A stretch of DNA of 29,822 bases. Source: an uncultured Thermotogae bacterium (lineage in GTDB: Bacteria; Bipolaricaulota; Bipolaricaulia; UBA7950; UBA9294). The notes beneath the pieces are model-generated. The model was not told the origin of the DNA and did no database searches. It was given only the letters and a program-made list of their open reading frames with translations. The translations under genes were made by a program, and so were the position numbers. Of this stretch, positions 1-24,516 are shown one piece after another (the stretch's first letter is position 1; the number at the start of each line of letters is the position of its first letter). The stretch covers positions 1 through 29,822 of the forward strand of contig CAZQUT010000002.1 of the NCBI GenBank assembly GCA_964596555.1. The letters are read 5' to 3'.

Positions 1-164
1 AGATCGGTCAATGCTAGTCGCTCTTTGGCTACACCATCAGAATACAGAAGAGGAAGCAGAGTCTCCACGCCGGGAAGGCCGTAGGGGAGATCGAGGAATG
101 ATCCTTTCCACGTCTTCTGCTCGACGGTAAACGGGCAGTGATCGGTCGCTACGAGATCGAGCGT
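1..164. repeat. Exact 164-bp direct repeat, copy 1 (identical to 24891-25054)
   Basis: Base-by-base comparison: 1-164 equals 24891-25054. The first mismatches are at 165, 168, 171 and 188. Confidence 0.95.
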
Positions 165-1073
165 CCCTTCGCGCAGGGCTTTCCACAACGCATCCTGATC
201 TCTTTCGGTGCGTAGCGGCGGCATCACTGAAAACAGGTGCCCTTCCGGTTTTTTGTATACATCCTCGGTCAAGAGGAGATACTGCGGGCAGGTCTCCCCA
301 CTCACGCGTACCCCATGTGTGTGTGCACGATGGATAATCTCTAACCCTTGTCTGGAACTCACGTGCACGATGTGCAATCTTGCTCTGGTGTCTTCGGTAA
401 GGGTGACGGCCTCCGCGACGGCCAGAGCTTCGCAAATCGGAGGACGGGTTCTCGAATAGTGGGCCATCGATCCTTTCTGAGCCGGAGTAAGCTGCCGCAA
501 GAAAGACTCGATTATCGAATCATCTTCCGCGTGCACCATCGCCACGCCGCCAAACTCGGAAATCTTGCGGAACGCACGATAGAGGACAGCGGAGTCCGAG
601 CGTTGCCCAAGCGATCCATACGCCATGTAGAACTTGAATGTTTTCACCCCGGCTTCTTGTGCTCGCTCGAATTCTTCTTCATGCCCAGGCTCCCAGCCGA
701 TCACCTCCGCGTGCAGGGCAAAATCCACCACCGACGGTGCGGCCTCTCGCTTACGAGCTTCTATCTCTTCGGGAATTGAGGTCTTCGAGTCTCCAACAGT
801 AAAATCGATTATCGTCGTTACCCCACCGCACGCTGCAGCGATCGTCCCGCTGAGAAAGTCATCGCTCGAACTGATTCCGTAGTTCTCAGCAGCCATGTGC
901 GTATGAGCGTCGATAACACCTGGGAATACAAGCTTTCCAGATGCGTCAATTTCTTTCCTGCCACTAAGATTAACGCCCATAGTAGCGATCTTTCCCCCAC
1001 TGACAGCGACATCAGCTTTGACGACCTCGTAGGGAGTAACAATGGTCCCGCCGCGGATCACAACGTCGTTCAT
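1..1073 (-). CDS. hydA: Dihydropyrimidinase / D-hydantoinase (cyclic amidohydrolase), 3'-truncated by the window edge; paralog 2
   Basis: Absent from the ORF track because no stop falls inside the window. Hand translation from the ATG at 1073 (ATGA overlap with the upstream stop) gives MNDVVIRGGTIVTPYEVVKADVAV...PGVIDAHTH...AAACGGVTTIIDF...GVKTFKFYMAY...MVHAED...LHIVHVSS...GETCPQYL...ATDHCPF. The metal-binding HxH, carbamylated Lys (FKFY), His and Asp motifs are all present. Confidence 0.92.
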   Translation of the reverse strand, partial: MNDVVIRGGTIVTPYEVVKADVAVSGGKIATMGVNLSGRKEIDASGKLVFPGVIDAHTHMAAENYGISSSDDFLSGTIAAACGGVTTIIDFTVGDSKTSIPEEIEARKREAAPSVVDFALHAEVIGWEPGHEEEFERAQEAGVKTFKFYMAYGSLGQRSDSAVLYRAFRKISEFGGVAMVHAEDDSIIESFLRQLTPAQKGSMAHYSRTRPPICEALAVAEAVTLTEDTRARLHIVHVSSRQGLEIIHRAHTHGVRVSGETCPQYLLLTEDVYKKPEGHLFSVMPPLRTERDQDALWKALREGTLDLVATDHCPFTVEQKTWKGSFLDLPYGLPGVETLLPLLYSDGVAKERLALTD

Positions 1074-2179
1074 ATGTCCACCCTCTCTACCACAAGCTGC
1101 AGAGCTTCGTGCGGGCAAGCGGAGGCGCACAGCCCACACAACCGGCAGGCCGACGAATCAACTTGCCGGGGACTTCTCCGTGCCTGGTACGGACAGATCC
1201 GTACGCACACCCCGCAATCTACGCAGCGCTCTTCATTTAGCCCAAATGACGCTCTCTCTGCATCGGTTGTTGTGGGTAGGCCGGAGTCGCTCCGCTCATA
1301 CCCCCGCAATGAGGGAAGCGCCGCCCCGATCACGTCGTTCAGGCTACAATAGCCAAGTTCCTCCAATCGAGCAGAGAGCTTTTCCGCAAGATCGGAGAAG
1401 ATCGTAACTCCGCGCAGGATAGCTAAGCTGCAGATCCCAACGGCGTGTGCACCGGCCATCATCATCTCGACGATCTCATCGACGTTCCAAATCCCGCCGG
1501 TGCCGACAATGGGGGCTCCCGTAGCAAGGGCAATCTCGGATACGATCCGCAGGGCGATAGGTAGGATCGCCTCTCCGGTCAGCCATCCGTATCCACTTCT
1601 AAGAACTGGAGCGCACTTCTCCACATCGATCCGCAACGCCGGCCCGATCGAATCGATCGCCGTGATCGCCTCTGCCCCGTTTGCCAGGCACGCACGTGCG
1701 ACATCGACCACATCGGGCCAGTTAGCGCTCACCTTGGCGAAGACCGGTATATCGACCTGCTGGACCGCTTCCCTAACCATAGGCAACAGAGCCTTGCCGT
1801 CGTAGGAGACGACCTCAAGTGCATCAGCGCCAGCACGCTCGATGCGATGGGCGAGCACAGCGACGTCCTGCAAAGCGAGGCCCAGACTGGCAATGACGAC
1901 CGCTCCACCCTCCTCAGCAAGCGGTATCTCCCTCTCAATCCATTGCTCGCAAGGTAGATCAGACCACTTTTCACCATTGATGAGACCGTTTTCCACCTTG
2001 GCAATGTGGGGGACAGGATTAACAGCAGGCACTCGACTAATTGTCTTAGTCACCACTGCCCCGGCTCCGGCACGATGGGCACGGAGGATCGCGCTGCCGT
2101 CGTAGGAGAGCGGACCGGATGCAAGAATAAACGGATTCTTGAGTTTAACTCCACCGATAGTTGTCTTGAGCTCTGCCAT
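1070..2179 (-). CDS. PreA / class 1 dihydroorotate dehydrogenase-like FMN TIM-barrel protein with a C-terminal 2x[4Fe-4S] ferredoxin domain; atypical active site
   Basis: N-terminal LKNPFILASGPLS, GAVVTKT, VFAKVSAN and IVGTGGI FMN-barrel motifs. C-terminal CVDCGVCVRICP and CRLCGLCASACP. The usual LNxSCPN/H loop is replaced by LEVVSYDG. Confidence 0.8.
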   Translation of the reverse strand: MAELKTTIGGVKLKNPFILASGPLSYDGSAILRAHRAGAGAVVTKTISRVPAVNPVPHIAKVENGLINGEKWSDLPCEQWIEREIPLAEEGGAVVIASLGLALQDVAVLAHRIERAGADALEVVSYDGKALLPMVREAVQQVDIPVFAKVSANWPDVVDVARACLANGAEAITAIDSIGPALRIDVEKCAPVLRSGYGWLTGEAILPIALRIVSEIALATGAPIVGTGGIWNVDEIVEMMMAGAHAVGICSLAILRGVTIFSDLAEKLSARLEELGYCSLNDVIGAALPSLRGYERSDSGLPTTTDAERASFGLNEERCVDCGVCVRICPYQARRSPRQVDSSACRLCGLCASACPHEALQLVVERVDI

Positions 2180-2182
2180 CTC

Positions 2183-3502
2183 TCACCCCACTCCCCACAG
2201 CCGCTGAGCCTGTGTTCTTGCTGCATGTCTCGCCTCTTCGATGTCCACGGTCAACAGCTCACCGTCGTTCATGAGAAGCCTTCCGTTCACGATCGACAGA
2301 CGAACGTCGCTGCCGCTACGGTAGAGAACTACCTGATCGAGAGCATTCTCTTGAGTAAGAGGTGTATCAAGAGACAAATCAATTCCGATCAAGTCAGCGA
2401 GCATTCCCGGGGCGATCTTCCCTGTATTTTGGATGCCAATCGCCTCCGCTCCCCAGGATGTACCCATAGCAAAGACCGTCTTTGCTGGCATCACTTGTGG
2501 GTCGCACAACGCGCCCTTATGAATCAGGAACGCCGCGCGCATCACCTCGAATGGATCGTTGATGTAGCCATCCGTACCTAGCCCCGGTCGCATCCCGCGT
2601 GAGATCATATCCGGAACCAGTGCGATCCCTCCTCCCACTTCGCAGTTGCTTAAGGGCATGTGCGCAAGCCGCACTCCACGCGCGGCAAGGATATCGATCT
2701 CTTCTAAGTCAAGCGCCACCCCTTGAGCCGCAAGGACTGAACCATCCCAGAACCCGACCTGAGCGTACCACTGCACCGGCCGAAGACCATGTTTCTGGAG
2801 GCATACCTCCGGTTCATACGGACTTTCTGAGAGATGGAGATGAATTCCGCATCCAAGTTCATCGGCGATCTCCTTGGCATGCCTGACGAACCCCTCCGAG
2901 CAGGTGAAGCTCGTGTGGACACACATCATTCCACTAACGAGTGGATCGGCCACGTGCCTTTCGGCAAATCGCGCGTTCTCCGTGATCGCCTTTTCTCCCA
3001 GTTCTCTTCCCAGCCTCTCCGACGCCTCGATTGACAGGACTGCTCTAAGGCCTGCATCTATTAGAACCTTCGCTTCCACTTCGAGCGCCCCAGGGAGGCA
3101 GTTTGGCGCCTCCAAAATGTCGCAGAAACTGGTGAACCCGGACTGAATCATCCTCCCACACGCTAGTCGAGACACGGCAGAGATCATCTCGTGGTCAAGT
3201 CGATTCTCTACCCGCGGCCACCAGAAGTCGCTTAGAAATTCATAGAAGCCCACTGATGACGCATCGACCGGAATACCGTGAGCAAGGAGGCCGTAGGAGT
3301 GCATGTGTGCATTCACAAACCCGGGCATGAGGAGAAGATCGGTCGCATCGATCACCTCAGCATCAAGATGTGCGGCACGCAGCTCATCGTTCGGACCGAC
3401 TGCAGTGATCATTGCCCCATCGATCGCAGCCCCCCAATCCTCTTTCAATGGTTCTTCAGCAGAGGAAAGGAGCGCTCCGCCGAGAACGAGACGTTCAGCC
3501 AT
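2183..3502 (-). CDS. Metal-dependent amidohydrolase/deaminase (Atz/Trz/SsnA-like)
   Basis: PGFVNAHMH, HLSES and LGTDG motifs. The FLSDFWWPRVENRLD segment resembles SsnA-type proteins. Substrate unknown. Confidence 0.82.
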   Translation of the reverse strand: MAERLVLGGALLSSAEEPLKEDWGAAIDGAMITAVGPNDELRAAHLDAEVIDATDLLLMPGFVNAHMHSYGLLAHGIPVDASSVGFYEFLSDFWWPRVENRLDHEMISAVSRLACGRMIQSGFTSFCDILEAPNCLPGALEVEAKVLIDAGLRAVLSIEASERLGRELGEKAITENARFAERHVADPLVSGMMCVHTSFTCSEGFVRHAKEIADELGCGIHLHLSESPYEPEVCLQKHGLRPVQWYAQVGFWDGSVLAAQGVALDLEEIDILAARGVRLAHMPLSNCEVGGGIALVPDMISRGMRPGLGTDGYINDPFEVMRAAFLIHKGALCDPQVMPAKTVFAMGTSWGAEAIGIQNTGKIAPGMLADLIGIDLSLDTPLTQENALDQVVLYRSGSDVRLSIVNGRLLMNDGELLTVDIEEARHAARTQAQRLWGVG

Positions 3503-5405
3503 CCTCTAACCCCTTCAGCCGCTTGGCCACCTGAGAGAGACTAAGCCTTTCCAAGGTCTTCGTCGTCGGCCAACCGCGCTTCTTATCCCAGCCACGCAAG
3601 TCGTAGTATTCATCGAGCATATCTTCCGCATGAGCAATCTCTCCCTTTGCTCCAGCAGAGGGAGAGGGCTCCTCGGTGAACCGGCGCGGGAGGCGATCAT
3701 CCGACCGCGTGATCCCGTGGATCGCGTTGTAGGCACGCATCAGGTTGTATATCCGCTCCCCGATTGTCTTGAGATTGCCTCCGGTAAATTCGATCCCCGT
3801 AGCGTAGGTCAGCCCCTGCGCGATCTCCGGCCAGTAGATCTCGGCCATGACAAACGTGCCGCCAGACTTGCATACGCCCACAGAATCGACCACCGCGCCG
3901 AAATCCTCTCCGTCCTTCACCAGGAATGGCTTGTACTTTGTTGCGTGCGGATCGGCCATTTCAGGCAGATACTCTTTCCCGTAGCGACGTTCCACTTCTT
4001 TAGGATAGCCTGTCTCATCGATCGTAGGGAAGGCCTTGAGGTGGTCGGCTCCGCGGCTCGATGTGATGTGCGCAAGGCCCATGGACTGCTGTGCTCGCCC
4101 ATCCTGAGCCGGAATCTCCTGCCCCTTGACCTCCATCGCGTAGTATTCCGCTCCGTGCCCAATCTGAGCTGCAGCAACACGTACCCCGTCTGCAAGGAGT
4201 GCTCCCAATCCTTCACGGTTGGCGATCTGCTCGATCAGCTCAAGGACCACGTGGTAGTTGCCCCATTCCAGGGGCATTCCGCCGGTCTCCTTCTTCGTCA
4301 GGATCCCTTTCTCGTACAGTTCCATGGCAAAGGAGATCGACCGACCGGTGGAGATTGTATCGAGCCCCAACCTATCGCAGCGGTCGTTCGCCGCGATGAT
4401 CGCATCCAGCCTGCTGACACCGACCCCCGATCCCAACGAACTCAGTGTCTCGTATTCGAAGCTCGATGTAACAGTCCCAGCGAACTCTCCTTCGCTCACC
4501 CGATAGATGTTGTCGCAGCGAATCGGGCACGCGAAGCACCCATCGTTCTTGACCCAGTACTTGTCATGGAGGGTGTCACCCCCGATCTTCTCAGCAAGGG
4601 CAAAATCCCCCGCTTGGAAGTTGTTGGTGGGAAAGCGACCAATCTCGTTCATGATCATCACCAATCCGGAGGTACCGTAGCGAGCAAGGGCAGGATAGAA
4701 CTCGTTCTTTCTGATCCGCTCATGCATAGCGCGAGAAAGACGGCCAAATTCCGCGGGGTGTGCGATTGGAACCTTTCCCTTTCCTCGTACTGCAATCGCT
4801 TTGAGCTTCTTTGATCCCATCACCGTCCCAATCCCGCTGCGTGCAAGGCTTCGGTTGGGGGTCACTTGAATAGAGGCATAGCGGACCCCGTTCTCCCCGG
4901 CAGGACCGATGCACGCAACCTTAATCCGCTCATCACCTTTCTGTTCTCTGATAGCTGCTTCAGTCTCGATCGTATCCATCCCCCACAAACTGCTGGCATC
5001 TTCTAGGGTAGCTTTCTCCTGCCCAATCCACAGCGTGACCGGCCGATCGGCAGCGCCAGTGATAACCAGCATGTCGTATCCGGCGAACTTCAGCTCCGGT
5101 CCGAAGTATCCGCCACAGTTCGAATCGCCATAGATTCCGGTAAGCGGAGACTTGCTGATCGCCTCCATCCGTCCGCAGGTCGGCCAAGCCGTGCCCACAA
5201 GCGGACCGGTGGCAATAACCAACACATTCTCCGGTGATAGCGGATTGACCGAAGGAGAGACTTCATCCCAGAGAATCTTGACGCCAAATCCGTTCCCACC
5301 CAGGAATGCGCGGGCCATCTCCGATGTAACCTCGTGCTCTTCGATCGTTCTCTCACTGAGGTCCACCCGTAGGTACCTTCCCATATAACCGCCACCTATC
5401 TGCAT
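3495..5405 (-). CDS. aor: Aldehyde:ferredoxin oxidoreductase family protein (tungstopterin, AOR/WOR), copy 2
   Basis: RVDLS, FLGGNG, KSPLTG, ACIGPAGE, RSGIGTVMGSKKLKAI, CFACPIRC, EYET, GLDTIS, KGQEIP, SSRGADH, DSVGVC. Confidence 0.93.
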   Translation of the reverse strand: MQIGGGYMGRYLRVDLSERTIEEHEVTSEMARAFLGGNGFGVKILWDEVSPSVNPLSPENVLVIATGPLVGTAWPTCGRMEAISKSPLTGIYGDSNCGGYFGPELKFAGYDMLVITGAADRPVTLWIGQEKATLEDASSLWGMDTIETEAAIREQKGDERIKVACIGPAGENGVRYASIQVTPNRSLARSGIGTVMGSKKLKAIAVRGKGKVPIAHPAEFGRLSRAMHERIRKNEFYPALARYGTSGLVMIMNEIGRFPTNNFQAGDFALAEKIGGDTLHDKYWVKNDGCFACPIRCDNIYRVSEGEFAGTVTSSFEYETLSSLGSGVGVSRLDAIIAANDRCDRLGLDTISTGRSISFAMELYEKGILTKKETGGMPLEWGNYHVVLELIEQIANREGLGALLADGVRVAAAQIGHGAEYYAMEVKGQEIPAQDGRAQQSMGLAHITSSRGADHLKAFPTIDETGYPKEVERRYGKEYLPEMADPHATKYKPFLVKDGEDFGAVVDSVGVCKSGGTFVMAEIYWPEIAQGLTYATGIEFTGGNLKTIGERIYNLMRAYNAIHGITRSDDRLPRRFTEEPSPSAGAKGEIAHAEDMLDEYYDLRGWDKKRGWPTTKTLERLSLSQVAKRLKGLEDG

Positions 5406-7255
5406 CGTCCCTCCTGGACTAGTCCGTCAAGGCCAAGCTCACGCAGCTTCTCATCGGTGGGAATACCATTCTCATCCCATCCGCGTAGCAGGTAGTACCG
5501 TTTCAACATCGCATCGAAGTCATTGATCTTGTGCATGATGGTAATCCTGCCGTGCTTAACAGGGAGGGATTCGTCAGTGAATCTGGAGGGAAGTCGATCG
5601 TCCCTTGCCGACAGGCCGAGACGCACATTGTACATCCGTTCCAGATTAATGATCCGTTCCCCAATTTGCAAGAGCTCATCTGCTTTGATCTTCCACCCAA
5701 GGGCGCTGATTCCCCATGCCAAGTCCTCAGGGTAAAGCTGATAATTCTCCACGGTGCTGAACTTGCAGACCCCTAAGGAATCAGCAATCGCACAGTACCG
5801 CTCGCTGAATTCGACAAGGTCGGGCTTATAACGCTCGTTGTCCGTATCCAACAGATCGGGCATGGTGTCTGGAAGGAGATCATTTCCCACTTGTTCGAGG
5901 TGTGCCACATCGATCGTTGGGAGGGCGTACAGATGATCAGCGCCACGGTTAGAGGTAGCATGCCCCAAGCCAAAGCCCTTGGCCACACGCGGCTCCTGGG
6001 ACGGAATCTCCAGGCCTTTCACCTGCATCGCATACCGGTACGCTTCACCCCCGATCTCCACGGCCGCACGTCGCGTCCCCTGTGCTAGAAGTGCCCCTAG
6101 GCCTTCCCGCTTTGCAATCTGGTTGATCAGAGTGACAATTGTCTCGCCGTTTCCCCACGAGAGATCCAATTCATCGCTGTGCAGCAACCCCTTCTCATGG
6201 CACTCCATGGCGAACGCTATCGCGGCACCAGTGGAGAGCGTGTCCATCCCTAGCTCGTTGCATAGGAAATTTGCGTAGATAATAACCTGCGGGTCACTGC
6301 AGTAACACTTGCCTCCAAACGCGTCGATCGTCTCGTATTCCGGTCCAGCGGTGCGACAGCGGTACTTCCCTTCATCGATCCTGGACACACGCGCACACCG
6401 AATTGGGCAGCCAAGACAGCCTTCAGTCTTCTCCTTAAAACGCTCAAGCGCCTCGGCGTTGATTCGATCGACAAACGGGACTTGCCCCAACTGCATGTTC
6501 TTCGTAGGCAGATCACCCACATCGTTCTTGATGTTAACAAGGATCGGTGTGCCCCATCTGTGGTACTCAGCCGTTGCCGGACTGGCAAGGATTTTCTTGG
6601 TAGCAGCACGAACCTGATCGAGGAATTCCTTTGGAGACAGTTGCGGTCTGTTCCGAATGACTACCACTGCCTTCAGATTCTTGGCCCCGAATACTGTCCC
6701 TCCCCCTGTCCGTGCTGCCGCTCGTCCTCCGTCGTTCATCACACTGGCAAAGAGGACACCGTTCTCTCCCGCCGGCCCGATGCTTGCCACAGCGGCATCT
6801 GGGTACTTCGCGTGCAGGAGCGCTTCTGTTTCTCCTGTGGTCTTGCCCCTCAGTTCGTCAGCAAACTCAATTCGAATACTGAGCTTGTCAATCACGAGAT
6901 ACACCGGCCTTTCCGCCTGACCTTGAATCACTACTGCATCGAAGCCACAGGCCGCCAGATATGGCCCCAGTTTCCCTCCGGCATTGGCATACCCATAGAT
7001 CCCGGTGAGAGGAGAGCGAAAGGTGAGGTGATAACGGGACGCCGCAGGCCACGGTGTTCCGGAAAAGAGGCCAGAGGAGATGATGACGGCACTCTCTTGA
7101 CTCTCAGGCTCAACCTCTTTCCCGACCAGATCGTACAAGATACTGGCAGCGTAACCTCGCCCGCCTAAGTAGGACCCTATTGCCTCTATCGGCGTGTCCA
7201 CGAGCTCAATCGCGTACGCCGATAGATCAACATAACCAGTCTTGCGCGTGTTCAT
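5396..7255 (-). CDS. aor: Aldehyde:ferredoxin oxidoreductase family protein (tungstopterin, AOR/WOR), copy 1
   Basis: YLGGRG, RSPLTG, ASIGPAGE, RTGGGTVFGAKNLKAV, CLGCPIRC, GPEYET, GMDTLS, KGLEIP, SNRGADH, DSLGVCKF. Confidence 0.93.
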   Translation of the reverse strand: MNTRKTGYVDLSAYAIELVDTPIEAIGSYLGGRGYAASILYDLVGKEVEPESQESAVIISSGLFSGTPWPAASRYHLTFRSPLTGIYGYANAGGKLGPYLAACGFDAVVIQGQAERPVYLVIDKLSIRIEFADELRGKTTGETEALLHAKYPDAAVASIGPAGENGVLFASVMNDGGRAAARTGGGTVFGAKNLKAVVVIRNRPQLSPKEFLDQVRAATKKILASPATAEYHRWGTPILVNIKNDVGDLPTKNMQLGQVPFVDRINAEALERFKEKTEGCLGCPIRCARVSRIDEGKYRCRTAGPEYETIDAFGGKCYCSDPQVIIYANFLCNELGMDTLSTGAAIAFAMECHEKGLLHSDELDLSWGNGETIVTLINQIAKREGLGALLAQGTRRAAVEIGGEAYRYAMQVKGLEIPSQEPRVAKGFGLGHATSNRGADHLYALPTIDVAHLEQVGNDLLPDTMPDLLDTDNERYKPDLVEFSERYCAIADSLGVCKFSTVENYQLYPEDLAWGISALGWKIKADELLQIGERIINLERMYNVRLGLSARDDRLPSRFTDESLPVKHGRITIMHKINDFDAMLKRYYLLRGWDENGIPTDEKLRELGLDGLVQEGRCR

Positions 7256-17151: not shown

Positions 17152-18026
17152 CTTAGTACCTCCCGAATGTAAAAGACGATCACGACAAGAAGGCACAACA
17201 GAATAAGTAGACCGATCGCGGCTCCATAGCCCGCTTGATAGTACATGAATGCGTTTTCGTAGGCGTACAGGGGAAGAGTGAGAGACGCATTCCCCGGGCC
17301 CCCTTTTGTCAAAATGAACACGATGTCGAACATGTTGAATGTCCAAATCGTCTCCAGAGTAAAGATTATCAGTACAACTTTCTTGATGCTCGGGACGATG
17401 ATGTTAACCTGAGTCTGAATATAGCTCGCCCCGTCGATTGCTGCAGCATCGACGATATCTTTATTGATCGTCTGCAGCCCGGCAAGAAGCATTACAGTGA
17501 CAAATGGAATCCCCATCCAAATATTGGTGATGATGCATGTCCAGAGAGCAAGCTGCGGATCAGTGAGCCAATTGGGCGGATGGGCCATGCCCAAAGAATG
17601 GAGGACAGTATTCAGTGGCCCGCCGTTAAGAAAGATGTAGCGCCACATTAGTGAGACAACAACCGGAGGCAGGGCCCAAGGAACGAGAGCTATTCCGCGG
17701 AACATCCTTCGGAAACGCAGGAAGCGGGAATTAAGCATTGTGGCCAGCCAATAGGAAAGGACAAACTGCATCCCAACGCTGGTTATCGTCCAGACAAGGC
17801 TGTTACTGAATGCACGCAGGAAAAGGGGATCCTGAAACAGAAGTCCCACATTTTGGAAGCCGACAAACACGGTCTCTCGTGCGAGAGCACGGTAAGTGTA
17901 GAACATCCGCGTAATTCCCTGTATCAATGGATACAGGCTGACACCACAGAGAACAACTAACGCTGGAATGAGAAAGGGAATGGCTCGGCGCTCTTCGTTG
18001 AATGCTCCGCGATTGCTGTGCATCAT
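17148..18026 (-). CDS. Carbohydrate-family (CUT1) ABC transporter permease, MalF-like
   Basis: FVGFQN, PWALPPVV, W.GIPF, EAA loop DAAAIDGAS, TKGGPGNAS. Confidence 0.93.
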   Translation of the reverse strand: MMHSNRGAFNEERRAIPFLIPALVVLCGVSLYPLIQGITRMFYTYRALARETVFVGFQNVGLLFQDPLFLRAFSNSLVWTITSVGMQFVLSYWLATMLNSRFLRFRRMFRGIALVPWALPPVVVSLMWRYIFLNGGPLNTVLHSLGMAHPPNWLTDPQLALWTCIITNIWMGIPFVTVMLLAGLQTINKDIVDAAAIDGASYIQTQVNIIVPSIKKVVLIIFTLETIWTFNMFDIVFILTKGGPGNASLTLPLYAYENAFMYYQAGYGAAIGLLILLCLLVVIVFYIREVLR

Positions 18027-19054
18027 TGACCAAGCCCTTCAGCAAACTCTATCACAATCTTCAATCCTTTAGCTTCCTTGGCAAGTTGCAGTGCTTTCTC
18101 TAGCTCGGAAAAGGGGAAAGTATGTGTGATGATGCCCGGGAAATCTTGTGCATGATCGTTCAACCAGTTGACGGCTTCTCCAAACTGGCGCAGGTTGTAG
18201 CCGAAACTGCCCACAAGGGAGATCTCGCGGTAGTGTACCGCAAATGCATCGATACATACTCGATCACCCTTCGGTAATCCTCCGAATAGAAGAACCCGTC
18301 CAGCGGGCGCTGCCATATCAAAAGCCGTTTCTACTGGTGCCTTGCTTCCGACGGCGACTAGGATGCGATCAGCTTTGTCCCTGCCCCACTCGGCGGTCAT
18401 CCGCTCGCTGAGGTCCTCTTCCTGTGGTGAGATAACAGCCAGGCCGAGGTGGCGCGCCGCTTCAATCCGTGAAACGGAGATCTCGCTCAGTAGAACCTGT
18501 GCGCCTTTCGTTCTTGCCAACAGGGCAAGCATCACTCCCATCGGCCCGCCACCGATGACAAGGACGGTATCACCGTTACTGATGTCCGCCTTCTCGATCC
18601 CATTATGAACACAGGCAAGTGGTTCAGCTAGCGATCCGACGGAGAAATCGACCTCCGCTCCCAAGCGGAAGGTCCCCTGTTCCACGATCGCTCGTGGAAG
18701 AAGGATGAACTCCTGAAACGCGCCCGTAACAAATGACTTGTGTTCGCACATCTCCCCAAAATCGTGCTGGCAGAGATCGCACACTCCACACTCAACATAC
18801 GGAGCAGCAACGACTCGCTCTCCTACCTTGAATCGGTCAACTTCTGGCCCCACTTCCACTATGGTCCCAGTAAACTCATGTCCAAGTATGCAAGGAGGGG
18901 TGAAGTACGGGTGTCCCTTGAAGTAAGCCTTAACGTCGGTTCCACACAGTCCGACGGCTTGTGTCTTCAGCACTATCTCTCCAGGACCGGCGTGCGGCGT
19001 GGGAATCTCCCGATAACCGATCTTCCCAATCTCGACAAGCTCAGCGATCTTCAT
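18023..19054 (-). CDS. Zn-dependent alcohol/polyol dehydrogenase (MDR, sorbitol/threonine dehydrogenase-like)
   Basis: GLCGTD, LGHE, structural Zn motif CGVCDLC...C, AEPLAC, Rossmann motif IGGGPMG. Confidence 0.92.
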   Translation of the reverse strand: MKIAELVEIGKIGYREIPTPHAGPGEIVLKTQAVGLCGTDVKAYFKGHPYFTPPCILGHEFTGTIVEVGPEVDRFKVGERVVAAPYVECGVCDLCQHDFGEMCEHKSFVTGAFQEFILLPRAIVEQGTFRLGAEVDFSVGSLAEPLACVHNGIEKADISNGDTVLVIGGGPMGVMLALLARTKGAQVLLSEISVSRIEAARHLGLAVISPQEEDLSERMTAEWGRDKADRILVAVGSKAPVETAFDMAAPAGRVLLFGGLPKGDRVCIDAFAVHYREISLVGSFGYNLRQFGEAVNWLNDHAQDFPGIITHTFPFSELEKALQLAKEAKGLKIVIEFAEGLGQ

Positions 19055-19080: not shown

Positions 19081-19107
19081 AAGAAAGAAGGGGGGCTCTC
19101 GCCCCCC
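19081..19107 (-). terminator. Intrinsic terminator inside the operon
   Basis: Minus strand GGGGGGC-GAGA-GCCCCCC-TTCTTTCTT: a 7-bp GC stem, GNRA tetraloop and U-rich tail, just downstream of the stop at 19116. Confidence 0.75.
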
Positions 19108-19115
19108 ATAAAAAT

Positions 19116-19631
19116 CTAGTACTCGACCCGGATCTCGACGACGTACCAGTTCCACTGGTTCTCGTCGTAGAGCTCTATGGTCTCTGGATCGGAGTTGTAC
19201 GGGAAGGCAAGCTTCACCGGTCCACCCACGCTTGCTGGGAGGTCATCACCATCGAGAGTGGTAACCAAAAGGACCGGATAGTAGAGGGCATCCCTGATTG
19301 CAACGGGGACTTCCTTATCATCCGAAGCGATCGTCACGGCAGTGCTAGCACCGGCGGGAATCCCCACGTAGTCGAGAACCGCCTTCAGCGTCACACCACC
19401 GTAGGCCTGTTCTCCCATCCACGGATCCTCCACTACAAAGGCAACGTAGGGAAGTGCCTTCAGCATGTCGATATCAAACTCGAACACGTCACCATTATTG
19501 GTCAGCGCGATCGCTCCCGATACCGTAAATACAACCTCTCCAGCAGGTACGGGGACTTCTTTCCCCCACACACTCACGGCCATGAGTGTAATCACCAGTA
19601 CGCATAGCAACACCTTAGAAACATTTTTCAT
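19116..19631 (-). CDS. Exported protein with an oxidoreductase molybdopterin-binding-like (sulfite oxidase/MsrP-type) fold
   Basis: Signal peptide MKNVSKVLLCVLVITLMAVSVWG, then FTVSGAI, DPW, GVTLKAVL, ASDD, LDG, GGPVKLAFP, WNWYV. Strong SD GGGAGG. Fold call made by motif resemblance. Confidence 0.68.
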   Translation of the reverse strand: MKNVSKVLLCVLVITLMAVSVWGKEVPVPAGEVVFTVSGAIALTNNGDVFEFDIDMLKALPYVAFVVEDPWMGEQAYGGVTLKAVLDYVGIPAGASTAVTIASDDKEVPVAIRDALYYPVLLVTTLDGDDLPASVGGPVKLAFPYNSDPETIELYDENQWNWYVVEIRVEY

Positions 19632-19736: not shown

Positions 19737-20999
19737 CTATTGCAGGCCCATCCTCTTTAGGAACATGTTCCCCTGCGTCGTTGCATTGTTGAGAGCTGTA
19801 TCAAGGTCTCTTTTTCCCAAGACAACGAGTTCTAACTGCGGCAGGAATGATTGCCACTCCCACGAGAAGAATGCAAACATGTGCGGCTTCACGTCCCGAG
19901 CGTAGGGCAGCCACTGATACGCGACGTTCCACTGCCCTCCTTCTGTTTGAAATTCTGGCCGATCGATGGCGCTCTGTCTGACCGGGAAGAGCCAGTCAGC
20001 ATAGGCAATCCGGGCTGAATTCTCCACATTGGTGAAGAACTTCACGAACTCGGCCGCCTCATCTTTGTGTGGAGAGTCAATGTATATGCCCAACGATTGC
20101 GGATCAGATTCGGTGACCGTCCTTTCATCTCCCTTAACCTGCAGCATCCCCCAATCGAGTTTCCCCTTTGTCAGTCGCTCGATCCAGCTTCGTACCCAGC
20201 AACCGTAGCTGAACATCGCATACTTACCAGTTCTAAACCCTTGCAGCAGGCTCATGAAGTCATAACTCAAGATATCCTGCGGCATCGTCTTATCTACCGT
20301 TACTAGATCGGTGAAACTCTTGATCGCCTGCCTAGCGTTATCGTCAATGTCTACGTGCCACGTCCCATCGTCATACTGCTGGAGCACGTGTCCATTGTTC
20401 TCATCCACCAGACACCACCACAGACGCTGCTCGAGCGGGGCGAGTAGCCCCCACGTGGTGACCTCGCCGGTCTCATCCCTCTTGGTCAGTAGCTGCGCGT
20501 AGCCACGGAGTTCGTCCCAGGTGATCATCCCATCTTCAGGTAGAACGATCCCCGCGTCGGTGAACAGGGCCTTGTTGTAGAAGATGACCAGTGTCTCTTG
20601 CAAAAGGGGCATCCCATAGATAGCGCCGTTATCATCGCTAACCCCATCCCATATCGATGAGGAGATATCGGCCAGTGTGTCATCGCTCAGGTAATCGTTG
20701 AGCGGAGCAGCGTAGCCGAGCATCCCATACTCATAGCACATTACTGAATCCTCATGGAAGATGTCCGGGGCTTGCCCACCCTGAAAACTAGTCAACAGAT
20801 AGTCGTCCAGGTTCTCCCAGCCTTGCCAATTGATCTCGACCTGAATGTCCGGATTAGCCTCATTCCACTCCGCGACGATAGCCTTGATCTCCTTCACCGT
20901 ATCTCCCTGCCAGGCAGGGCAGACAAACATGAGGTCGGCGGCCGATCCGAGAACCCCAAGCATCGAGACCATCAGAGCCAGCAACATAACTCGTTTCAT
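19737..20999 (-). CDS. Carbohydrate-family ABC transporter substrate-binding protein (Sec signal peptide, no lipobox)
   Basis: Signal peptide MKRVMLL, WNEANPDIQV, GQAPDIF, YGMP, FYNKALF, TWDEL, FRTGKYAM. SD AAGGAGG supports a start at 20999 or 21002. Confidence 0.93.
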   Translation of the reverse strand: MKRVMLLALMVSMLGVLGSAADLMFVCPAWQGDTVKEIKAIVAEWNEANPDIQVEINWQGWENLDDYLLTSFQGGQAPDIFHEDSVMCYEYGMLGYAAPLNDYLSDDTLADISSSIWDGVSDDNGAIYGMPLLQETLVIFYNKALFTDAGIVLPEDGMITWDELRGYAQLLTKRDETGEVTTWGLLAPLEQRLWWCLVDENNGHVLQQYDDGTWHVDIDDNARQAIKSFTDLVTVDKTMPQDILSYDFMSLLQGFRTGKYAMFSYGCWVRSWIERLTKGKLDWGMLQVKGDERTVTESDPQSLGIYIDSPHKDEAAEFVKFFTNVENSARIAYADWLFPVRQSAIDRPEFQTEGGQWNVAYQWLPYARDVKPHMFAFFSWEWQSFLPQLELVVLGKRDLDTALNNATTQGNMFLKRMGLQ

Positions 21000-21035
21000 C
21001 ATTCCTCCTTTCATGCTCTTACACCCTCCCTTTTG

Positions 21036-22700
21036 TTAATCTGCTGCCTCGTCGTACTTCGTGAAGAAGATGGGGTCGTAGGGTTTTATCAGTGTCGCGC
21101 TGTGCTCGCGATAAATACCTACTATCCCGATCACATCCTTCCTTTCCACTGGAATAGGGAACTTGCCTATGATAATGGTTGCACTTCCGTCACTTGCCGA
21201 GATGTCGTTACCCATAATTGCCTTGACTTCGAGTCGGGGAACCGCAACTGTCTTTCCGATGAAGACCTCACTATGGGACTTCATCTCGTCGATCGTTAAA
21301 TTGGGGTTTAAGATGTAGAAAGACCGCTCACGGGAGACGGTTTCTCCATCCACCATCAGAAAGTCGATCGTCAATGAATGGTAGCCGCCGTCCAGCGTTG
21401 AGAAGTTCAGGTTTCCGTAGGCGGTGCTCCAAAGCATATTGTGAGATAACCCTGCTTCTATTGATGCTCTGTCATCGAGTTGCCAGGAAGCGCTCTTCGC
21501 TTCCCCCCACACCGCTGCCTGCAAGGTATCGTTCCAGAAGACAACCGCCCCTTGGGGTGAGCTGAGTTCAACTGTGTTCAGGCCCACCTCCTGCCAGATA
21601 CTCTCCAACCGCCCGCGGCTCATCCGGTACACCCGATATCCAAACTCGCTTCCATCTGGGGCCTCCCCTTCCCACCAGGAGCCGCATACTGCTCCAGATG
21701 TAAGCTCATAGAAGGGGTATTGCTGGTGTATAAGGAAGTTCGCGTGCCAAGAGCCATCTAACAAAGCAGTGATACCGATATTTGCTAAGAGCTTGAGCAT
21801 CTGTGCATTCTCCTCGGTATTAGCCCAAGAAGGGGTTGGCTCGTGACAGAAGACCACAATAGGGGCATTCGGATCTGCTGCGGCCAGATCCTGCTCTATC
21901 CAAACAAGTTGATTTTGGGAGACTGTATAAGTGAGTTTTGTGCCAGAAAGCTGCATGGTGTCTAAAACGACAAAGTGGATACCTTTCCTATTAAATGAGT
22001 AATAGGTAGGACCAAAGTATTTTTCGTATATCCCTTTCCCTACGGCTTCATCCCGCACTATGTCATGGTTCCCTTCCACAGCGAAGAAAGGGGAAGTAAA
22101 GTTTGCGGCAAACTGGTTGGCTACATAGGCCATCCATTTGTCGACCAGCTCAACAGGTGGCCGTTGCGCATCGGCCACAACGTCTCCTGTCAGCATAACA
22201 AAATCCGGTGCGAGGCTGTTTACCTCATCGATGATCGAATCCAATACCCCTTGAGGGAGGACTTTCATCCGTCGATCGTAGAAGGCTTTCTTGAACTCAT
22301 CCGGGTCAGTCGCGTAGTGCGTGTCCGAGAGTTGAACGAAGACGAGCGGGGAATCGTCCACTACCTCCCCCAGTGGGAAGTCAAGGGGTTTCCCTTCCGT
22401 AAGGTCCCGGTACCATCCGTCAAGCGGCCGGGTCCCGCTGGGCGTGCAGATAAAGACGAATCCAGCTTCGGGATCATGGTCCAGCGCGAAAACGCCGTTA
22501 TCATCCGTCGACACTATTGTAACCCCATCGCTCACGACCACCCCAGATAGTGGAAGATCGGCGCTGTCGTATTGCAGATCCTTGTTGTAATCGATGTAGA
22601 TCATTCCTGTTACCCCATAAAGGACGGCGCTTGCCAGTATCAGGGTACAGAGTGCTATCCCGATTGCCAGTGCAAGCCGTAATCTTCTCTGCATCATCAT
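21036..22700 (-). CDS. Secreted calcineurin-like metallophosphoesterase with an N-terminal beta-sandwich domain and a C-terminal extension
   Basis: Signal/anchor helix, DYNKD...PLSGVVVSDG, then SDTH, TGDVV, GNHD, FCHEP, GSWH and SGAVCGSWWEG. Confidence 0.85.
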   Translation of the reverse strand: MMMQRRLRLALAIGIALCTLILASAVLYGVTGMIYIDYNKDLQYDSADLPLSGVVVSDGVTIVSTDDNGVFALDHDPEAGFVFICTPSGTRPLDGWYRDLTEGKPLDFPLGEVVDDSPLVFVQLSDTHYATDPDEFKKAFYDRRMKVLPQGVLDSIIDEVNSLAPDFVMLTGDVVADAQRPPVELVDKWMAYVANQFAANFTSPFFAVEGNHDIVRDEAVGKGIYEKYFGPTYYSFNRKGIHFVVLDTMQLSGTKLTYTVSQNQLVWIEQDLAAADPNAPIVVFCHEPTPSWANTEENAQMLKLLANIGITALLDGSWHANFLIHQQYPFYELTSGAVCGSWWEGEAPDGSEFGYRVYRMSRGRLESIWQEVGLNTVELSSPQGAVVFWNDTLQAAVWGEAKSASWQLDDRASIEAGLSHNMLWSTAYGNLNFSTLDGGYHSLTIDFLMVDGETVSRERSFYILNPNLTIDEMKSHSEVFIGKTVAVPRLEVKAIMGNDISASDGSATIIIGKFPIPVERKDVIGIVGIYREHSATLIKPYDPIFFTKYDEAAD

Positions 22701-22710
22701 AGGTACCTCC

Positions 22711-23457
22711 TTAATCGCTCTGCGAATGGACTAGCTCCGTAAGTTGTTCAACCTCTCGTGTGGGATCGGCGGCCTCGAAGATGTTTCTGCCGAAGGCAAC
22801 ACCCGCGGCATGCAACGCGAGCGCGTCACGCACCATAGTCAGTGGGTCATCTACTTTTGGACCGCCAGCAATGAGAATCGGAACGGGGCAACTGTCAATA
22901 ACAGATTTGTAGGCTGGTGCACCCGTGAAGTAGGCCTTGATACAATTGGCCCCGAGTTCGTACCCCACCCGTGCCGCGCAACGCACCCACCCTGTATCGT
23001 AGAATCTGTCCGGTTCAACGGGGAGTATCTCCGCGATGAGCGGCATACCATAGTGCCGACAATCTCCTGCGATCTTCGCGAGAAGTTCGAGCGAGCGGGC
23101 TTCTCCCGCTCCTCCGATGAACCCCATCACCAAGACAGCGTCCGCGCCGAGAGAGACGGCCTGTTTCACCGTGGCGATCAGGCGGTGGTAATCGAAATCT
23201 GGGTTATGCTCGGTCGATGCCCCGGTCAGCCGCAAGATGAGCGCTGACCTTCCGGCATAGATGGATGCGAATTGCGCCGCAGGGCCGGGATTCAGGATTA
23301 TCCCATCCGCCCCGCCGTCGACCACCTTCCCTATGACCCCCTCCATGCTTTCGAGTCCTTTTGCCTCGTGCTTGAACTGCCCGTGGTCGAGGGCGATGAC
23401 GACCGCCCGTCCATCCGCACGGAAGATCCGCCTCAGCCGAATCATCTTTCCACTCAT
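22711..23457 (-). CDS. Class I (DhnA/LsrF-type) aldolase
   Basis: ALDHG, GADG, LGADAV, YGMPLIAE, ARVGYELGA, Schiff-base Lys in CIKAY, IAGGPK, GVAFGRNIF. Confidence 0.9.
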   Translation of the reverse strand: MSGKMIRLRRIFRADGRAVVIALDHGQFKHEAKGLESMEGVIGKVVDGGADGIILNPGPAAQFASIYAGRSALILRLTGASTEHNPDFDYHRLIATVKQAVSLGADAVLVMGFIGGAGEARSLELLAKIAGDCRHYGMPLIAEILPVEPDRFYDTGWVRCAARVGYELGANCIKAYFTGAPAYKSVIDSCPVPILIAGGPKVDDPLTMVRDALALHAAGVAFGRNIFEAADPTREVEQLTELVHSQSD

Positions 23458-24455
23458 TTATTCTCCTCCTTGATCACTTGCTGTTGACAGGTGGCACCGG
23501 GTATGAGTTTGACCGGCAAGGTGATGTCCTCGCCCTTCCCATCGAAGAGTTGCCGACATACCTCTTCGCCAAAACGGTATGCCGGGACCTTCACTGTGGT
23601 CAGCTTCGGTCTCACAAGAGCCAGGAGCGGCGTGTGGTCGAATCCTGTCACTCCTAGGTTCTCCGGAACGCTTAGCCCCATGTCCTCAGCAGCCTGGATC
23701 ACCCCAATCGCGATGAGGTCGTTTCCCGCCATGATTGCGTCCACATGGTGTGTTCCCAGGGTTTTCTGGGCGTGCTCGTATCCGGATTCATAGGTGAACT
23801 TACCGTGACAGATACATACAGGAGAGAGATTGGCCTGCGCCATCGTTTGGCGAAAGCCAGCTAAGCGGTCCTGGGTCGTGCTCACCTCTTGCGGTCCTGC
23901 GATGTAGGCAATCCTCTGATAACCGAGCCTAATGAGGTGCTTCGTCAATTCGCAGCTCCCCCCCTGGTTGTCGGCCCCAACGGTAGGCAATCCCTCCACA
24001 CGACGATCCGCAACGACGATCTTGATCCCTTGGCGCAGCAAGCGCTGCAGCTGTACCCCGTCCGGACGCCCCACCGGGATAAAGACGATCCCCTCCACCC
24101 CTTCCGCAAGGAGAATGTGCAAGTAGCGTGACTCCTTCTCAACAGAATGCGCGCTGTCACATACCAGAGTGGAAAAGTCGTTCTCGAATGCGACCGATCC
24201 TACACCACGCACGATACGGGAGAAAAATGAGTTAGAGATATCTGGAACGAGGATACCGATTACTTGCGTGTGCTGTCGACGAAGTGTCTGCGCCGCTTTT
24301 ACCGGCGTGTAATTCAGATCCTTAATCGCCACTAGAACTCGCTGTTTCGTTTCCGGCCGCATGTGATCAGCGTCATTCCCGTTCAACACACGAGAGACAG
24401 TACTCTGCGAAACCCCAGCTCTTGCAGCTACGTCTCTAATGGTTGCCTGTTTCAT
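23454..24455 (-). CDS. LacI-family transcriptional regulator
   Basis: HTH TIRDVAARAGVSQSTVSRVLN, IGILVPDISNSFF, RLAGF, GNDLIAIG, VTGFD. Start placed at the ATG at 24455; the track extension to 24497 runs into the promoter. Confidence 0.95.
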   Translation of the reverse strand: MKQATIRDVAARAGVSQSTVSRVLNGNDADHMRPETKQRVLVAIKDLNYTPVKAAQTLRRQHTQVIGILVPDISNSFFSRIVRGVGSVAFENDFSTLVCDSAHSVEKESRYLHILLAEGVEGIVFIPVGRPDGVQLQRLLRQGIKIVVADRRVEGLPTVGADNQGGSCELTKHLIRLGYQRIAYIAGPQEVSTTQDRLAGFRQTMAQANLSPVCICHGKFTYESGYEHAQKTLGTHHVDAIMAGNDLIAIGVIQAAEDMGLSVPENLGVTGFDHTPLLALVRPKLTTVKVPAYRFGEEVCRQLFDGKGEDITLPVKLIPGATCQQQVIKEENK

Positions 24456-24459
24456 AATG

Positions 24460-24482
24460 GGAAATCGTTTTCCGAAATCGTT
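24460..24482. promoter_or_regulatory. LacI-type operator (GGAAATCGTTTTCC, 24460-24473) plus an adjacent repeat GAAATCGTT (24474-24482)
   Basis: CG-centred near-palindrome with 6 of 7 pairs matching, resembling LacI-family operators. It sits between the -10 box and the regulator start codon. Confidence 0.65.
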
Positions 24483-24487
24483 ACACC

Positions 24488-24516
24488 ACCATAACACAAC
24501 TCTTGGAGGATGTCAA
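24488..24516 (-). promoter_or_regulatory. Sigma70-type promoter of the operon
   Basis: Minus strand TTGACA (24516-24511), 17-bp spacer ending in TGT (extended -10), TATGGT (24493-24488). Confidence 0.75.

Follow-up and report, generated by a model that had tools for sequence, protein, structure and literature searches.

Ftr and Mch are used as marker genes for tetrahydromethanopterin (H4MPT)-dependent one-carbon (C1) metabolism in metagenome annotation. The contig CAZQUT010000002.1 of an uncultured bacterium, analysed here at its full length of 29.8 kb (the window), carries an adjacent pair of ftr-like and mch-like genes within a long same-strand run that also encodes a LacI-family repressor, a sugar-type ATP-binding cassette (ABC) importer and a series of catabolic enzymes, and the question is what such a pair could be doing there. 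The two proteins could be canonical C1 enzymes, they could serve the salvage of an imported cofactor, they could be a relic standing by chance among unrelated operons, or they could act within a single catabolic pathway encoded by the whole run, its substrate being a pterin or a purine. Judging from the gene families and their linkage, the general scheme that we consider likely is that the run serves, as a single pathway, to break down an imported fused-pyrimidine compound that is phosphorylated and alpha-ribosylated and bears a polyol.

The Ftr-like and Mch-like proteins and their hosts

A preliminary description of this DNA placed adjacent ftr-like and mch-like genes between an ABC importer with a kinase and a deaminase, and domain scans agree: the two genes are separated by a gap of 5 nt and flanked by the genes of an NAD-kinase/DAGK-like kinase and a cog0402 amidohydrolase. 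Both products score below the equivalog cut-offs of their families, the Ftr-like protein having 171.8 bits on TIGR03119 (cut-off 292.6) and the Mch-like protein 157.8 bits on TIGR03120 (cut-off 228.8). On TIGR03119 the clade relatives of the Ftr-like protein score 156–193 bits versus 400–456 bits for 16 canonical archaeal Ftr. When 1.84 billion cluster representatives were searched exhaustively with phmmer, only 415 Mch clusters came up; 13 of them score above 160 bits with the window protein, after which the scores fall to approximately 120 bits outside the clade. In a maximum-likelihood tree of 129 Mch sequences, which compares the 23 rows of the clade with about 100 other Mch cluster representatives, the window protein belongs to a 23-member clade with a support of 100 in the Shimodaira–Hasegawa approximate likelihood-ratio test (SH-aLRT) and a stem of 0.51, and is not nested among canonical Mch. 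The separate clade that the preliminary description had proposed to look for is hence found in a tree for Mch and on the basis of scores for Ftr.

The catalytic machinery of both proteins seems to be retained, as far as alignments can tell. The Mch clade keeps 26 of the 33 columns with a conservation of 80% or more among approximately 100 other Mch representatives, and R184 and E187 of the Mch-like protein, which we take to be the catalytic pair numbered Arg183/Glu186 in M. kandleri Mch, are invariant in the clade. The Ftr-like protein, approximately 30% identical to canonical Ftr, keeps the two-lobe architecture (PF01913, residues 3–147; PF02741, residues 150–297), and its Glu248, which is aligned with the catalytic Glu of canonical Ftr, is invariant in its clade; the role of the oxyanion-stabilising Glu in Ftr/FhcD has been described (PMC6926001). 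The Ftr-like protein is more diverged from the canonical members than the Mch-like one, and the N-terminal DTFAEAF of canonical Ftr is replaced in it by xxCECT. A third Ftr group was observed in the archaeal genomes G178, G196 and G220 (loci L049, L050 and L051), with TIGR03119 scores of 222–230 bits, between those of the canonical proteins and the clade; it is accompanied by a canonical Ftr in two of the three genomes (G196 and G220).

As stated in the preliminary description, the window holds no Fwd/Fhc, Mtd or cofactor-biosynthesis gene, and our scans of it also found neither Mer nor Fae. The metagenome-assembled genome (MAG) to which the window belongs as one entire contig (1.27 Mb, 219 contigs) has exactly one FTR match and one MCH match, and RFAP synthase, Fae and GXGXG (FwdC/FhcC) gave no match in it at a completeness of 74.6%. 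As the MAG is incomplete, the genomes of its relatives were searched too. Ftr is present in 18 of 151 genomes of the phylum, and in 16 of 55 within the same family, always as a single copy. RFAP synthase (TIGR00144) was found in none of the 151 phylum genomes, the 18 Ftr carriers among them, while FwdC/FhcC (TIGR03122) and Mer were each found above the cut-off in none of 61 family genomes; the search with Mpt_N (MtdA/B) was uninformative, as no control genome gave a match. The genome scan suggested by the preliminary description thus turned up no H4MPT/methanofuran pathway.

FolD, in turn, is present in 53 of the 61 family genomes, including nearly all Ftr carriers, and in all six genomes of the same genus that were searched. 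The window's own MAG has no match to FolD or Fhs, and since FolD is so widespread in the family, this gap is explained by incompleteness. Thus, the Ftr/Mch pair is an addition to the folate C1 metabolism rather than its replacement, and substitution of the pair for FolD/Fhs is ruled out. Taken together, sequence divergence and genomic setting indicate that the Ftr-like and Mch-like proteins are not canonical C1-pathway enzymes here.

Gene content and conservation of the cluster

Gene calls are those of an open reading frame (ORF) listing combined with Pfam and NCBIfam scans of the window proteins. They yield 22 tightly packed genes on the minus strand at 3–25999, of which 21 lie between 3 and 24497 and one upstream, at 24614–25999; the preliminary description had counted 19 same-strand genes, a figure to be corrected to 21–22. 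Its six overlaps are all real, with ATGA at 23454, 18023, 17148, 8189 and 1070 and GTGA at 16324, and the remaining junctions range from −44 to +105 nt. The features, in the order of transcription and with the short names used below, are as follows.

24614..25999, minus strand: dihydropyrimidinase/hydantoinase DHP_up, the first gene of the strand run (TIGR02033, 425 bits, above the cut-off of 393)
24488..24516, minus strand: sigma-70-like promoter TTGACA-17-TATGGT, TG-extended, a consensus match only
23454..24455, minus strand: LacI-family repressor (PF00356 and Peripla_BP_3), likely start ATG 24455, longest ORF to 24497
22711..23457, minus strand: class I DhnA/DeoC-type aldolase (PF01791, 110 bits; NF005556, ADH-synthase/FBA-I-like, 212 bits, below the cut-off of 241)
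21036..22700, minus strand: calcineurin-like metallophosphoesterase, exported or membrane-anchored (PF16371, PF00149, PF16370)
19737..21014, minus strand: CUT1 (SBP_bac_1) solute-binding protein with a signal peptide (domain scan)
19116..19631, minus strand: small exported protein of 171 aa with a molybdopterin-binding (Oxidored_molyb) fold (PF00174, 31 bits)
19090..19107, minus strand: GC-rich hairpin with a T-tract, which may attenuate or partly terminate transcription (terminator scan)
18023..19054, minus strand: Zn-dependent polyol/threonine-dehydrogenase-like alcohol dehydrogenase, Zn-ADH (PF08240 and PF00107; the Tdh, IolM and galactitol-1-phosphate 5-dehydrogenase models are below cut-off)
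17148..18026, minus strand: ABC permease 1, MalF/UgpA-like (PF00528)
16324..17151, minus strand: ABC permease 2, MalG/GlcU-like (PF00528), start within the ATGA overlap
15320..16327, minus strand: NAD-kinase/DAGK-fold kinase (PF00781 and PF01513, both weak)
14390..15298, minus strand: Ftr-like protein, a diverged formyltransferase paralogue (PF01913 and PF02741)
13395..14384, minus strand: Mch-like protein, a diverged cyclohydrolase paralogue (PF02289, 173 bits)
12053..13405, minus strand: AH1, cog0402 (TRZ/ATZ) aminoheterocycle deaminase (PF01979, 225 bits)
10642..12069, minus strand: VAO/GlcD-type FAD oxidoreductase with a divergent substrate domain (PF01565, 122 bits)
9501..10652, minus strand: Fe-S/CCG (GlcF/HdrD-like) electron-transfer partner (PF02754 and PF13183)
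8189..9493, minus strand: ADP-ribosylglycohydrolase (ARH)-fold hydrolase with an N-terminal extension (PF03747, 169.8 bits, threshold 26.2)
7257..8192, minus strand: ribokinase, RbsK (TIGR02152, 311.4 bits, above the equivalog cut-off of 299.65)
5396..7255, minus strand: tungsten aldehyde:ferredoxin oxidoreductase (AOR) 1 (PF02730 and PF01314; best PDB match 1AOR, 392 bits)
3495..5405, minus strand: tungsten aldehyde:ferredoxin oxidoreductase 2 (best PDB match 1AOR, 468 bits)
2183..3502, minus strand: AH2, SsnA-like cog0402 amidohydrolase (NF005540, 265 bits, below the cut-off of 444)
1070..2179, minus strand: DHODH/PreA-like flavoprotein with a C-terminal 2x[4Fe-4S] domain (PF01180 and Fer4; PreA model 163 bits, below the cut-off of 335)
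3..1073, minus strand: second dihydropyrimidinase/hydantoinase DHP_dn, cut by the contig end (TIGR02033, 330 bits on the partial protein)

The gene neighbourhoods of Ftr homologues from the protein collection and those of 22 loci, one genome per species, were compared. The same approximately 20 families occur together in about 20 species-level MAGs, at 40–97% amino-acid identity, and in two gene orders. In the first one, that of the window, Ftr-Mch is followed by AH1-FAD-CCG-ARH-RbsK-AOR-AOR-AH2-DHOD-DHP; in the second one, by AOR-AOR-AH2-DHOD-AH1-FAD-CCG-ARH-RbsK, the hydantoinase gene being divergent. The synteny on which the preliminary description had made its interpretation depend is therefore present, as a common gene set in two arrangements. 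The kinase gene always directly precedes that of Ftr in the compared loci, the FAD oxidoreductase is the most conserved cluster protein (71–73%), the small exported protein is conserved beside the binding protein in related loci, and a DHP gene adjoins the cluster in other genomes, the orthologue of DHP_dn being the cluster end in G222. The genes flanking the cluster vary among genomes, and in three long contigs where the neighbourhood was extended, unrelated genes (a type I restriction–modification system, PKD, SIR2, AMP-ligase) start immediately outside it. Thus, gene content is conserved despite rearrangement, which is strong evidence for one pathway.

The closest relatives of the window are MAGs labelled Bipolaricaulota, and all homologues of its Ftr and Mch come from uncultured organisms: in the search for a cultured carrier, only metagenomic proteins were returned. 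The record labels, given as deposited and unverified, are Bipolaricaulota/Acetothermia, Atribacteria, Thermotogae, Neomarinimicrobiota, Spirochaetota, Hadesarchaea and Pacearchaeota, and by record titles the carrier MAGs stem from anoxic sediments, wetlands, seeps and brines.

Some loci differ in content. A second CUT1 importer (a binding protein 38–41% identical and two permeases) lies upstream of the phosphoesterase gene in L003–L005 and L012, in L003–L005 also with a small protein of the molybdenum cofactor (Moco) fold, which suggests import of two related solutes. On the plus strand of the window, the genes beyond 26229 (a PALP enzyme, an NTPase and RmuC) are unrelated to the cluster. DHP_up and DHP_dn are 65% identical as proteins, yet a 189-nt tract (3–191 versus 24893–25081) is 97.9% identical; it stands exactly at the contig end and may reflect gene conversion, or an assembly artefact behind the contig break. 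The figure given for this shared stretch in the preliminary description was 164 identical bases.

As for regulation, the genes of the LacI repressor, the SBP_bac_1 binding protein and the two BPD_transp_1 permeases lie within one strand run. The site TTGACA-17-TATGGT at 24516–24488 (−) is the best promoter-like match of the region (10/12), and the likely LacI start (ATG 24455) follows approximately 35 nt downstream of it. Of the single TTGACA promoter claimed in the preliminary description, the site stands; its being the only one is not shown, as the counts of promoter and terminator motifs in the region do not exceed those in shuffles, and a hairpin, GGGGGG CGAGAG CCCCCC with a T-rich tail, is present at 19107–19090 (−) between the genes of the small exported protein and the Zn-ADH. 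The hairpin may raise the expression of the binding-protein genes relative to the rest; co-transcription of the genes from a single promoter is a supposition. The LacI protein probably controls the 22-gene run. Its nearest NCBIfam models are RbsR, CytR, CcpA, UriR and PurR, and it reaches the cut-off of none of them. A direct repeat, AACGATTTC-N5-AACGATTTC, is situated at 24460–24490 (−), between the −10 element and the LacI ATG, and was the only repeat seen when an inverted repeat was looked for: the surroundings of the promoter yielded no palindromic LacI-type operator. There is no ABC ATPase gene in the window. CUT1 systems usually lack an ATPase of their own and share MsiK/MalK, and the ATPase of this importer would be encoded elsewhere in the genome.

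A second conserved cluster type was observed around clade-type Mch in the metagenome contigs L052, L056, L057, L062 and L063. In these sister clusters, the importers are of the Bmp-type ABC or the ECF kind, and a deaminase resembling AH1, an FAD amine oxidase similar to ThiO/SoxB and a second Mch are encoded as well. This second Mch scores 240–292 bits, above the TIGR03120 cut-off, in L052, L056 and L057; L062 and L063 have the same gene order, the scores being those of the former three contigs only. The AH1 orthologue of L052, 42% identical, adjoins the clade-type Mch. Some sister clusters also include a clade-type Ftr, an opine/sarcosine-oxidase-like three-subunit enzyme or a thiamine pyrophosphate-dependent E1 alpha/beta pair, and one includes a Pterin_bind (MeTr-like) protein. 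A sister of the clade (P0132; L054:370-2157) is a canonical-scoring Mch with 274 bits, whose neighbours are a truncated FTR_C-only protein of 228 aa, a MalK-type ABC ATPase, an SDR protein and DUF2193.

A possible pathway and its substrate

The individual steps of the scheme were assigned from family membership and conserved linkage. An exported metallophosphoesterase, with the motifs DxH, GDxxD and GNHD visible in its sequence, would act first and cleave off a phosphate or phosphodiester group. Hydrophobic N-termini or export signals are present in the phosphoesterase as well as in the binding protein and the small protein, so this first step, dephosphorylation, is probably extracellular. The neutral glycoside would then be imported by the CUT1 system, comprising the binding protein, the small exported pterin-fold protein and the two permeases. 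The PDB relatives of the binding protein are generic sugar-binding proteins only (at most 73 bits), and the small protein belongs to an Atlas family of approximately 170-aa proteins (score 0.96).

Inside the cell, the ARH-fold hydrolase would cut an alpha-ribofuranosyl bond and the ribokinase would capture the ribose. The hydrolase, whose best PDB match is MJ1187 with 32 bits, has the motifs DDT and DTDCS, presumably the acidic metal motifs of ARH enzymes such as ARH3/DraG; together with the adjacent bona fide ribokinase, they imply that free ribose is released from an alpha-ribosyl linkage. The Zn-ADH and the NAD-kinase-fold kinase (Atlas family score 0.97; no sequence match in the PDB or in the plasmid collection searched) would turn a polyol side chain into a ketose phosphate, and the class I aldolase would split the latter into triose phosphate and an aldehyde, to be oxidised by the two AORs with reduction of ferredoxin. 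Both AORs are nearest to the broad-specificity aldehyde oxidoreductase 1AOR, and not to FOR or BamB, which points to aldehyde intermediates and would supply the ring reductase with reduced ferredoxin; by analogy, such an aldehyde would naturally arise where a polyol dehydrogenase and a kinase act together with a class I aldolase.

The remaining enzymes would act on the ring. AH1 and AH2 are of aminoheterocycle deaminase/hydrolase types; the nearest characterised relatives of AH1 are 5'-methylthioadenosine (MTA)/S-adenosylhomocysteine (SAH)/5'-deoxyadenosine and 8-oxoguanine deaminases, and AH1 would remove an exocyclic amino group. A cyclic formamidine (methenyl) carbon would be hydrolysed by the Mch-like protein, and the N-formyl group so produced would be taken off by the Ftr-like protein. 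Finally, the PreA-like flavoprotein, the SsnA-like hydrolase and the hydantoinase(s) would reductively dearomatise the pyrimidine ring and open it. The genes of AH2, the DHODH/PreA-like flavoprotein and DHP_dn are adjacent in the window and represent the same three families as YgfK, SsnA and HyuA of anaerobic uric-acid degradation, for which reductive dearomatisation coupled to ring hydrolysis, and the opening of hydantoin/dihydrouracil, was shown in vitro (bioRxiv 10.1101/2025.05.19.654654). Given that the reductase is PreA-like and that the cluster lacks the later purine-pathway genes, it is this chemistry that seems to have been borrowed, and not the pathway. The FAD protein aligns with D-2-hydroxyacid dehydrogenases over residues 13–255, that is, over the FAD domain only.

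The preliminary description had supposed that the pair was recruited for a formyl/methenyl carbon of an N-heterocycle. The clade, the synteny and the pathway searches all favour recruitment; the chemistry and the substrate stay at the level of prediction. It also did not recognise the gene combination from any characterised pathway, and indeed no paper describing the cluster was found. The pathway is undescribed so far.

Which compound could require all these enzymes? Methanopterin consists of a pterin, an aminophenyl moiety, ribitol, an alpha-linked ribose-5-phosphate and a phosphodiester to 2-hydroxyglutarate, a structure reportedly established in the work of White and Thauer. Its common C1 forms are N5,N10-methenyl and N5-formyl, which Mch and Ftr evolved to bind. 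In our estimation, it is the one compound among those considered that would account for nearly every conserved gene. The ribitol would yield dihydroxyacetone phosphate (DHAP) and an arylacetaldehyde, the C1 unit would be handled by the Mch-like and Ftr-like proteins, and the pterin, by the deaminases and a reductive opening of its ring. On this view, Ftr and Mch would have been acquired from archaea as proteins that already recognised the molecule. The sister clusters, with their Bmp/ECF importers, amine oxidases and Mch in two copies, would be versions of the pathway suited to related C1-pterins. The canonical-scoring Mch and the Pterin_bind protein of the sister clusters, together with the molybdopterin fold of the small protein, are hints of a pterin. 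We thus put forward methanopterin or (methenyl/formyl-)H4MPT from archaeal necromass as a tentative substrate, one about which doubts outweigh confidence. It is possible, if doubtful, that Bipolaricaulota and neighbouring bacteria import methanopterin/H4MPT from dead methanogens or anaerobic methanotrophic archaea (ANME) and dismantle it piecewise. The whole, that is, a 22-gene pathway with methanopterin as the favoured substrate, is the best explanation that we can offer and may well be right, the chances being a little short of even. We found no paper on degradation, catabolism or salvage of methanopterin, nor one linking Ftr/Mch to Bipolaricaulota, Acetothermia or Atribacterota. As substrates, F420, FAD/riboflavin, Moco/molybdopterin guanine dinucleotide (MGD), a cobamide lower ligand and NAD/ADP-ribose were considered and rejected, as each leaves several conserved genes unexplained, notably Ftr/Mch or the pair of ARH and ribokinase.

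Several observations weigh against this reading. The Ftr-like protein retains only 44 of the 111 columns that are at least 90% conserved among the 16 canonical archaeal Ftr (their conservation is overstated, as all 16 come from one archaeal phylum), the SGSK motif has become SGAK with loss of the second Ser, and the proposed scheme assigns no formyl acceptor to the enzyme. Across the Mch clade, the canonical QxAGW stretch no longer has its Trp, and N230D, along with further changes, is fixed. A clade-type and a canonical-scoring Mch occur together in the sister clusters, hence the clade enzyme probably catalyses a different reaction, and not the textbook methenyl-H4MPT one. One relative, the Acetothermia MAG T3Sed10_47 (L026), has no Mch gene at all; a hydantoinase-family gene 36% identical to DHP_up lies between its kinase and Ftr genes (L026:8574-9917) and may be a non-orthologous replacement of the ring-opening step. 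If the phosphoesterase is extracellular, hydroxyglutarate would be released outside, so that the FAD/CCG pair would be left without the substrate proposed for it, and the substrate domain of the FAD protein is itself unlike that of known 2-hydroxyacid dehydrogenases. The sequencing runs holding the locus are DNA only (salt-lake, brine and marine-sediment metagenomes), with no RNA run among those listed. Lastly, the Bmp-type binding proteins of the sister clusters and the adenosine-type relatives of AH1 fit a purine substrate, as Bmp-type proteins typically bind purine nucleosides.

The latter point brings in the main rival, a modified or decorated purine nucleoside or nucleotide, for instance, a compound similar to 5'-deoxyadenosine or MTA, one derived from ADP-ribose or NAD, or a cationic N-alkylated purine such as 7-methylguanosine (m7G). 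Here AH1 would deaminate adenine or guanine, the Mch-like protein would open the N-CH=N amidine (C2 or C8) as inosine monophosphate (IMP) or GTP cyclohydrolase does, the Ftr-like protein would remove the formyl group as AICAR transformylase running backwards (a reversed PurH), and the PreA-like, SsnA-like and DHP proteins would finish the ring. Apart from the Bmp-family proteins, the best characterised relatives of AH1 and AH2 (the deaminases named above and SsnA), the LacI models RbsR, CytR, PurR and UriR, and the trio of SsnA, DHP and an Fe-S flavoprotein known from purine breakdown all speak for such a substrate. However, the cluster has no nucleoside phosphorylase/hydrolase and no xanthine-dehydrogenase-type enzyme, none of YgeW, YqeA, YgeX and YgeY lies at its edges in long contigs, and the Zn-ADH, the kinase, the aldolase, the two AORs, the FAD/CCG pair and the alpha-specific ARH-fold glycohydrolase would be left unexplained. 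The sister clusters, moreover, have Mch copies with canonical scores, and one of them has a pterin-binding protein. A purine is therefore, in our view, rather unlikely, if the strongest of the competitors.

The other alternatives fare worse. Cofactor salvage would mean that a pterin (methanopterin or folate-like) is imported and its C1 group stripped or interconverted by Ftr/Mch for reuse, the host possibly being a pterin auxotroph. Folate/pterin auxotrophy with salvage was reported to be conserved in Atribacterota (PMC13408713), and the cluster does contain importers and a pterin-fold exported protein; nonetheless, the enzymes destroying the ring (two deaminases, the reductive dearomatisation trio) and cleaving the side chain (the aldolase, the AORs) are invariably present, FolD is present irrespective of Ftr/Mch, and no H4MPT-dependent enzymes that could use the cofactor were found in these genomes, all of which makes salvage improbable. 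Chance juxtaposition of unrelated operons (sugar uptake, ribose, aldehyde oxidation, pyrimidine breakdown) with relic Ftr/Mch is disfavoured, and we see very little chance for it: the hairpin with the T-tract after the small-protein gene could separate transcription units, and the promoter and terminator scans do not rise above shuffles, but some 20 families stay together in some 20 species despite a permuted order and differing flanks, and six junctions show translational coupling. Finally, the two proteins could be canonical H4MPT-dependent enzymes of formaldehyde or formate metabolism, as they share Pfam domains, overall fold and catalytic residues with Ftr and Mch. This explanation is effectively refuted by the sub-cut-off scores of both proteins, the separate Mch clade, the position of the pair within a catabolic operon and the absence of RFAP synthase, FwdC/FhcC and Mer from the genomes searched and of Fae from the MAG itself.

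The well-populated Ftr/Mch clade outside C1 metabolism implies that automatic calls of 'methanogenesis' or 'formaldehyde oxidation' would be wrong in Bipolaricaulota, Atribacteria-labelled and similar MAGs. The operon would represent a large, strongly conserved and entirely uncharacterised catabolic pathway of abundant, mostly uncultured subsurface anaerobes, and with it, ring opening of the reductive kind (driven by ferredoxin or flavin) would reach beyond uric acid to a further heterocycle. If methanopterin were indeed the substrate, the cluster would encode the first pathway that turns over a cofactor of methanogens, and would provide a trophic link from archaeal necromass to fermentative bacteria in methane-cycling sediments.

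Comparison with known systems

The window pair has the same folds as Ftr (EC 2.3.1.101; PDB 1FTR/2FHJ, 1M5S and 6S6Y chain D) and Mch (EC 3.5.4.27; PDB 1QLM and 4GVQ), the Ftr-like and Mch-like proteins matching the PDB members with 134–145 and 102–138 bits, respectively, and keeping the catalytic Glu of Ftr and the Arg/Glu of Mch. Compared with the canonical H4MPT enzymes of methanogens and methylotrophs, they are approximately 30–38% identical and are encoded within a LacI/ABC-importer catabolic operon; unlike the hosts of canonical Ftr/Mch, the carriers were found to be without Fwd/Fhc, Mer or methanopterin biosynthesis, and Mtd is absent from the window.

The reductive uric-acid/2,8-dioxopurine pathway (XdhD, YgfK, SsnA, HyuA, YgeW/UacY, YgeY, YgeX; bioRxiv 10.1101/2025.05.19.654654, 10.1101/2025.04.24.650524) resembles the cluster in that an Fe-S flavoprotein reductase adjoins an SsnA-family hydrolase and a hydantoinase-family enzyme. 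The differences are that the window reductase is of the PreA/DHODH type with its own 2x[4Fe-4S] domain and not YgfK, that the SsnA-like protein falls below the cut-off (265 versus 444) while the hydantoinase passes its own, and that there is no Mo/Se hydroxylase, XdhD having been looked at in the cluster only and not genome-wide. A carbamoyltransferase, a carbamate kinase and a pyridoxal phosphate-dependent (diaminopropionate) lyase were not found at the cluster edges in long contigs. The window, for its part, adds the sugar, polyol, aldehyde and Ftr/Mch modules.

With the DHAP shunt, or 5-deoxyribose disposal, the cluster would share a logic by analogy only, as in both an aldolase would cut a phosphorylated ketose to triose phosphate and an aldehyde, the latter bearing the 'odd' end of the molecule and being oxidised next. 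The enzyme families are not the same: in the window a Zn-ADH takes the place of the isomerase, the kinase has the NAD-kinase fold, the class I aldolase is of the DhnA type, and the AORs are tungsten enzymes. PurH (IMP cyclohydrolase with AICAR formyltransferase) and FTCD likewise pair a cyclohydrolase with a formyl(imino)transferase for one ring carbon, but their folds are unrelated to those of the window proteins and they use tetrahydrofolate, so that the analogy is purely mechanistic.

Among the ADP-ribosylglycohydrolases of the ARH3/DraG type, the window enzyme differs from the solved members in an N-terminal extension of approximately 130 residues and in a match of only 32 bits to MJ1187, while sharing with them the ARH fold and both acidic metal motifs. 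In E. coli, pairs of the yegTUV type combine an ARH protein with a PfkB kinase, and the ARH gene of the window similarly adjoins that of a PfkB sugar kinase. ARH enzymes cleave alpha-linked ribofuranosyl-5-phosphate conjugates, and this is the linkage type of the ribose-5-phosphate alpha(1->5) ribitol in methanopterin.

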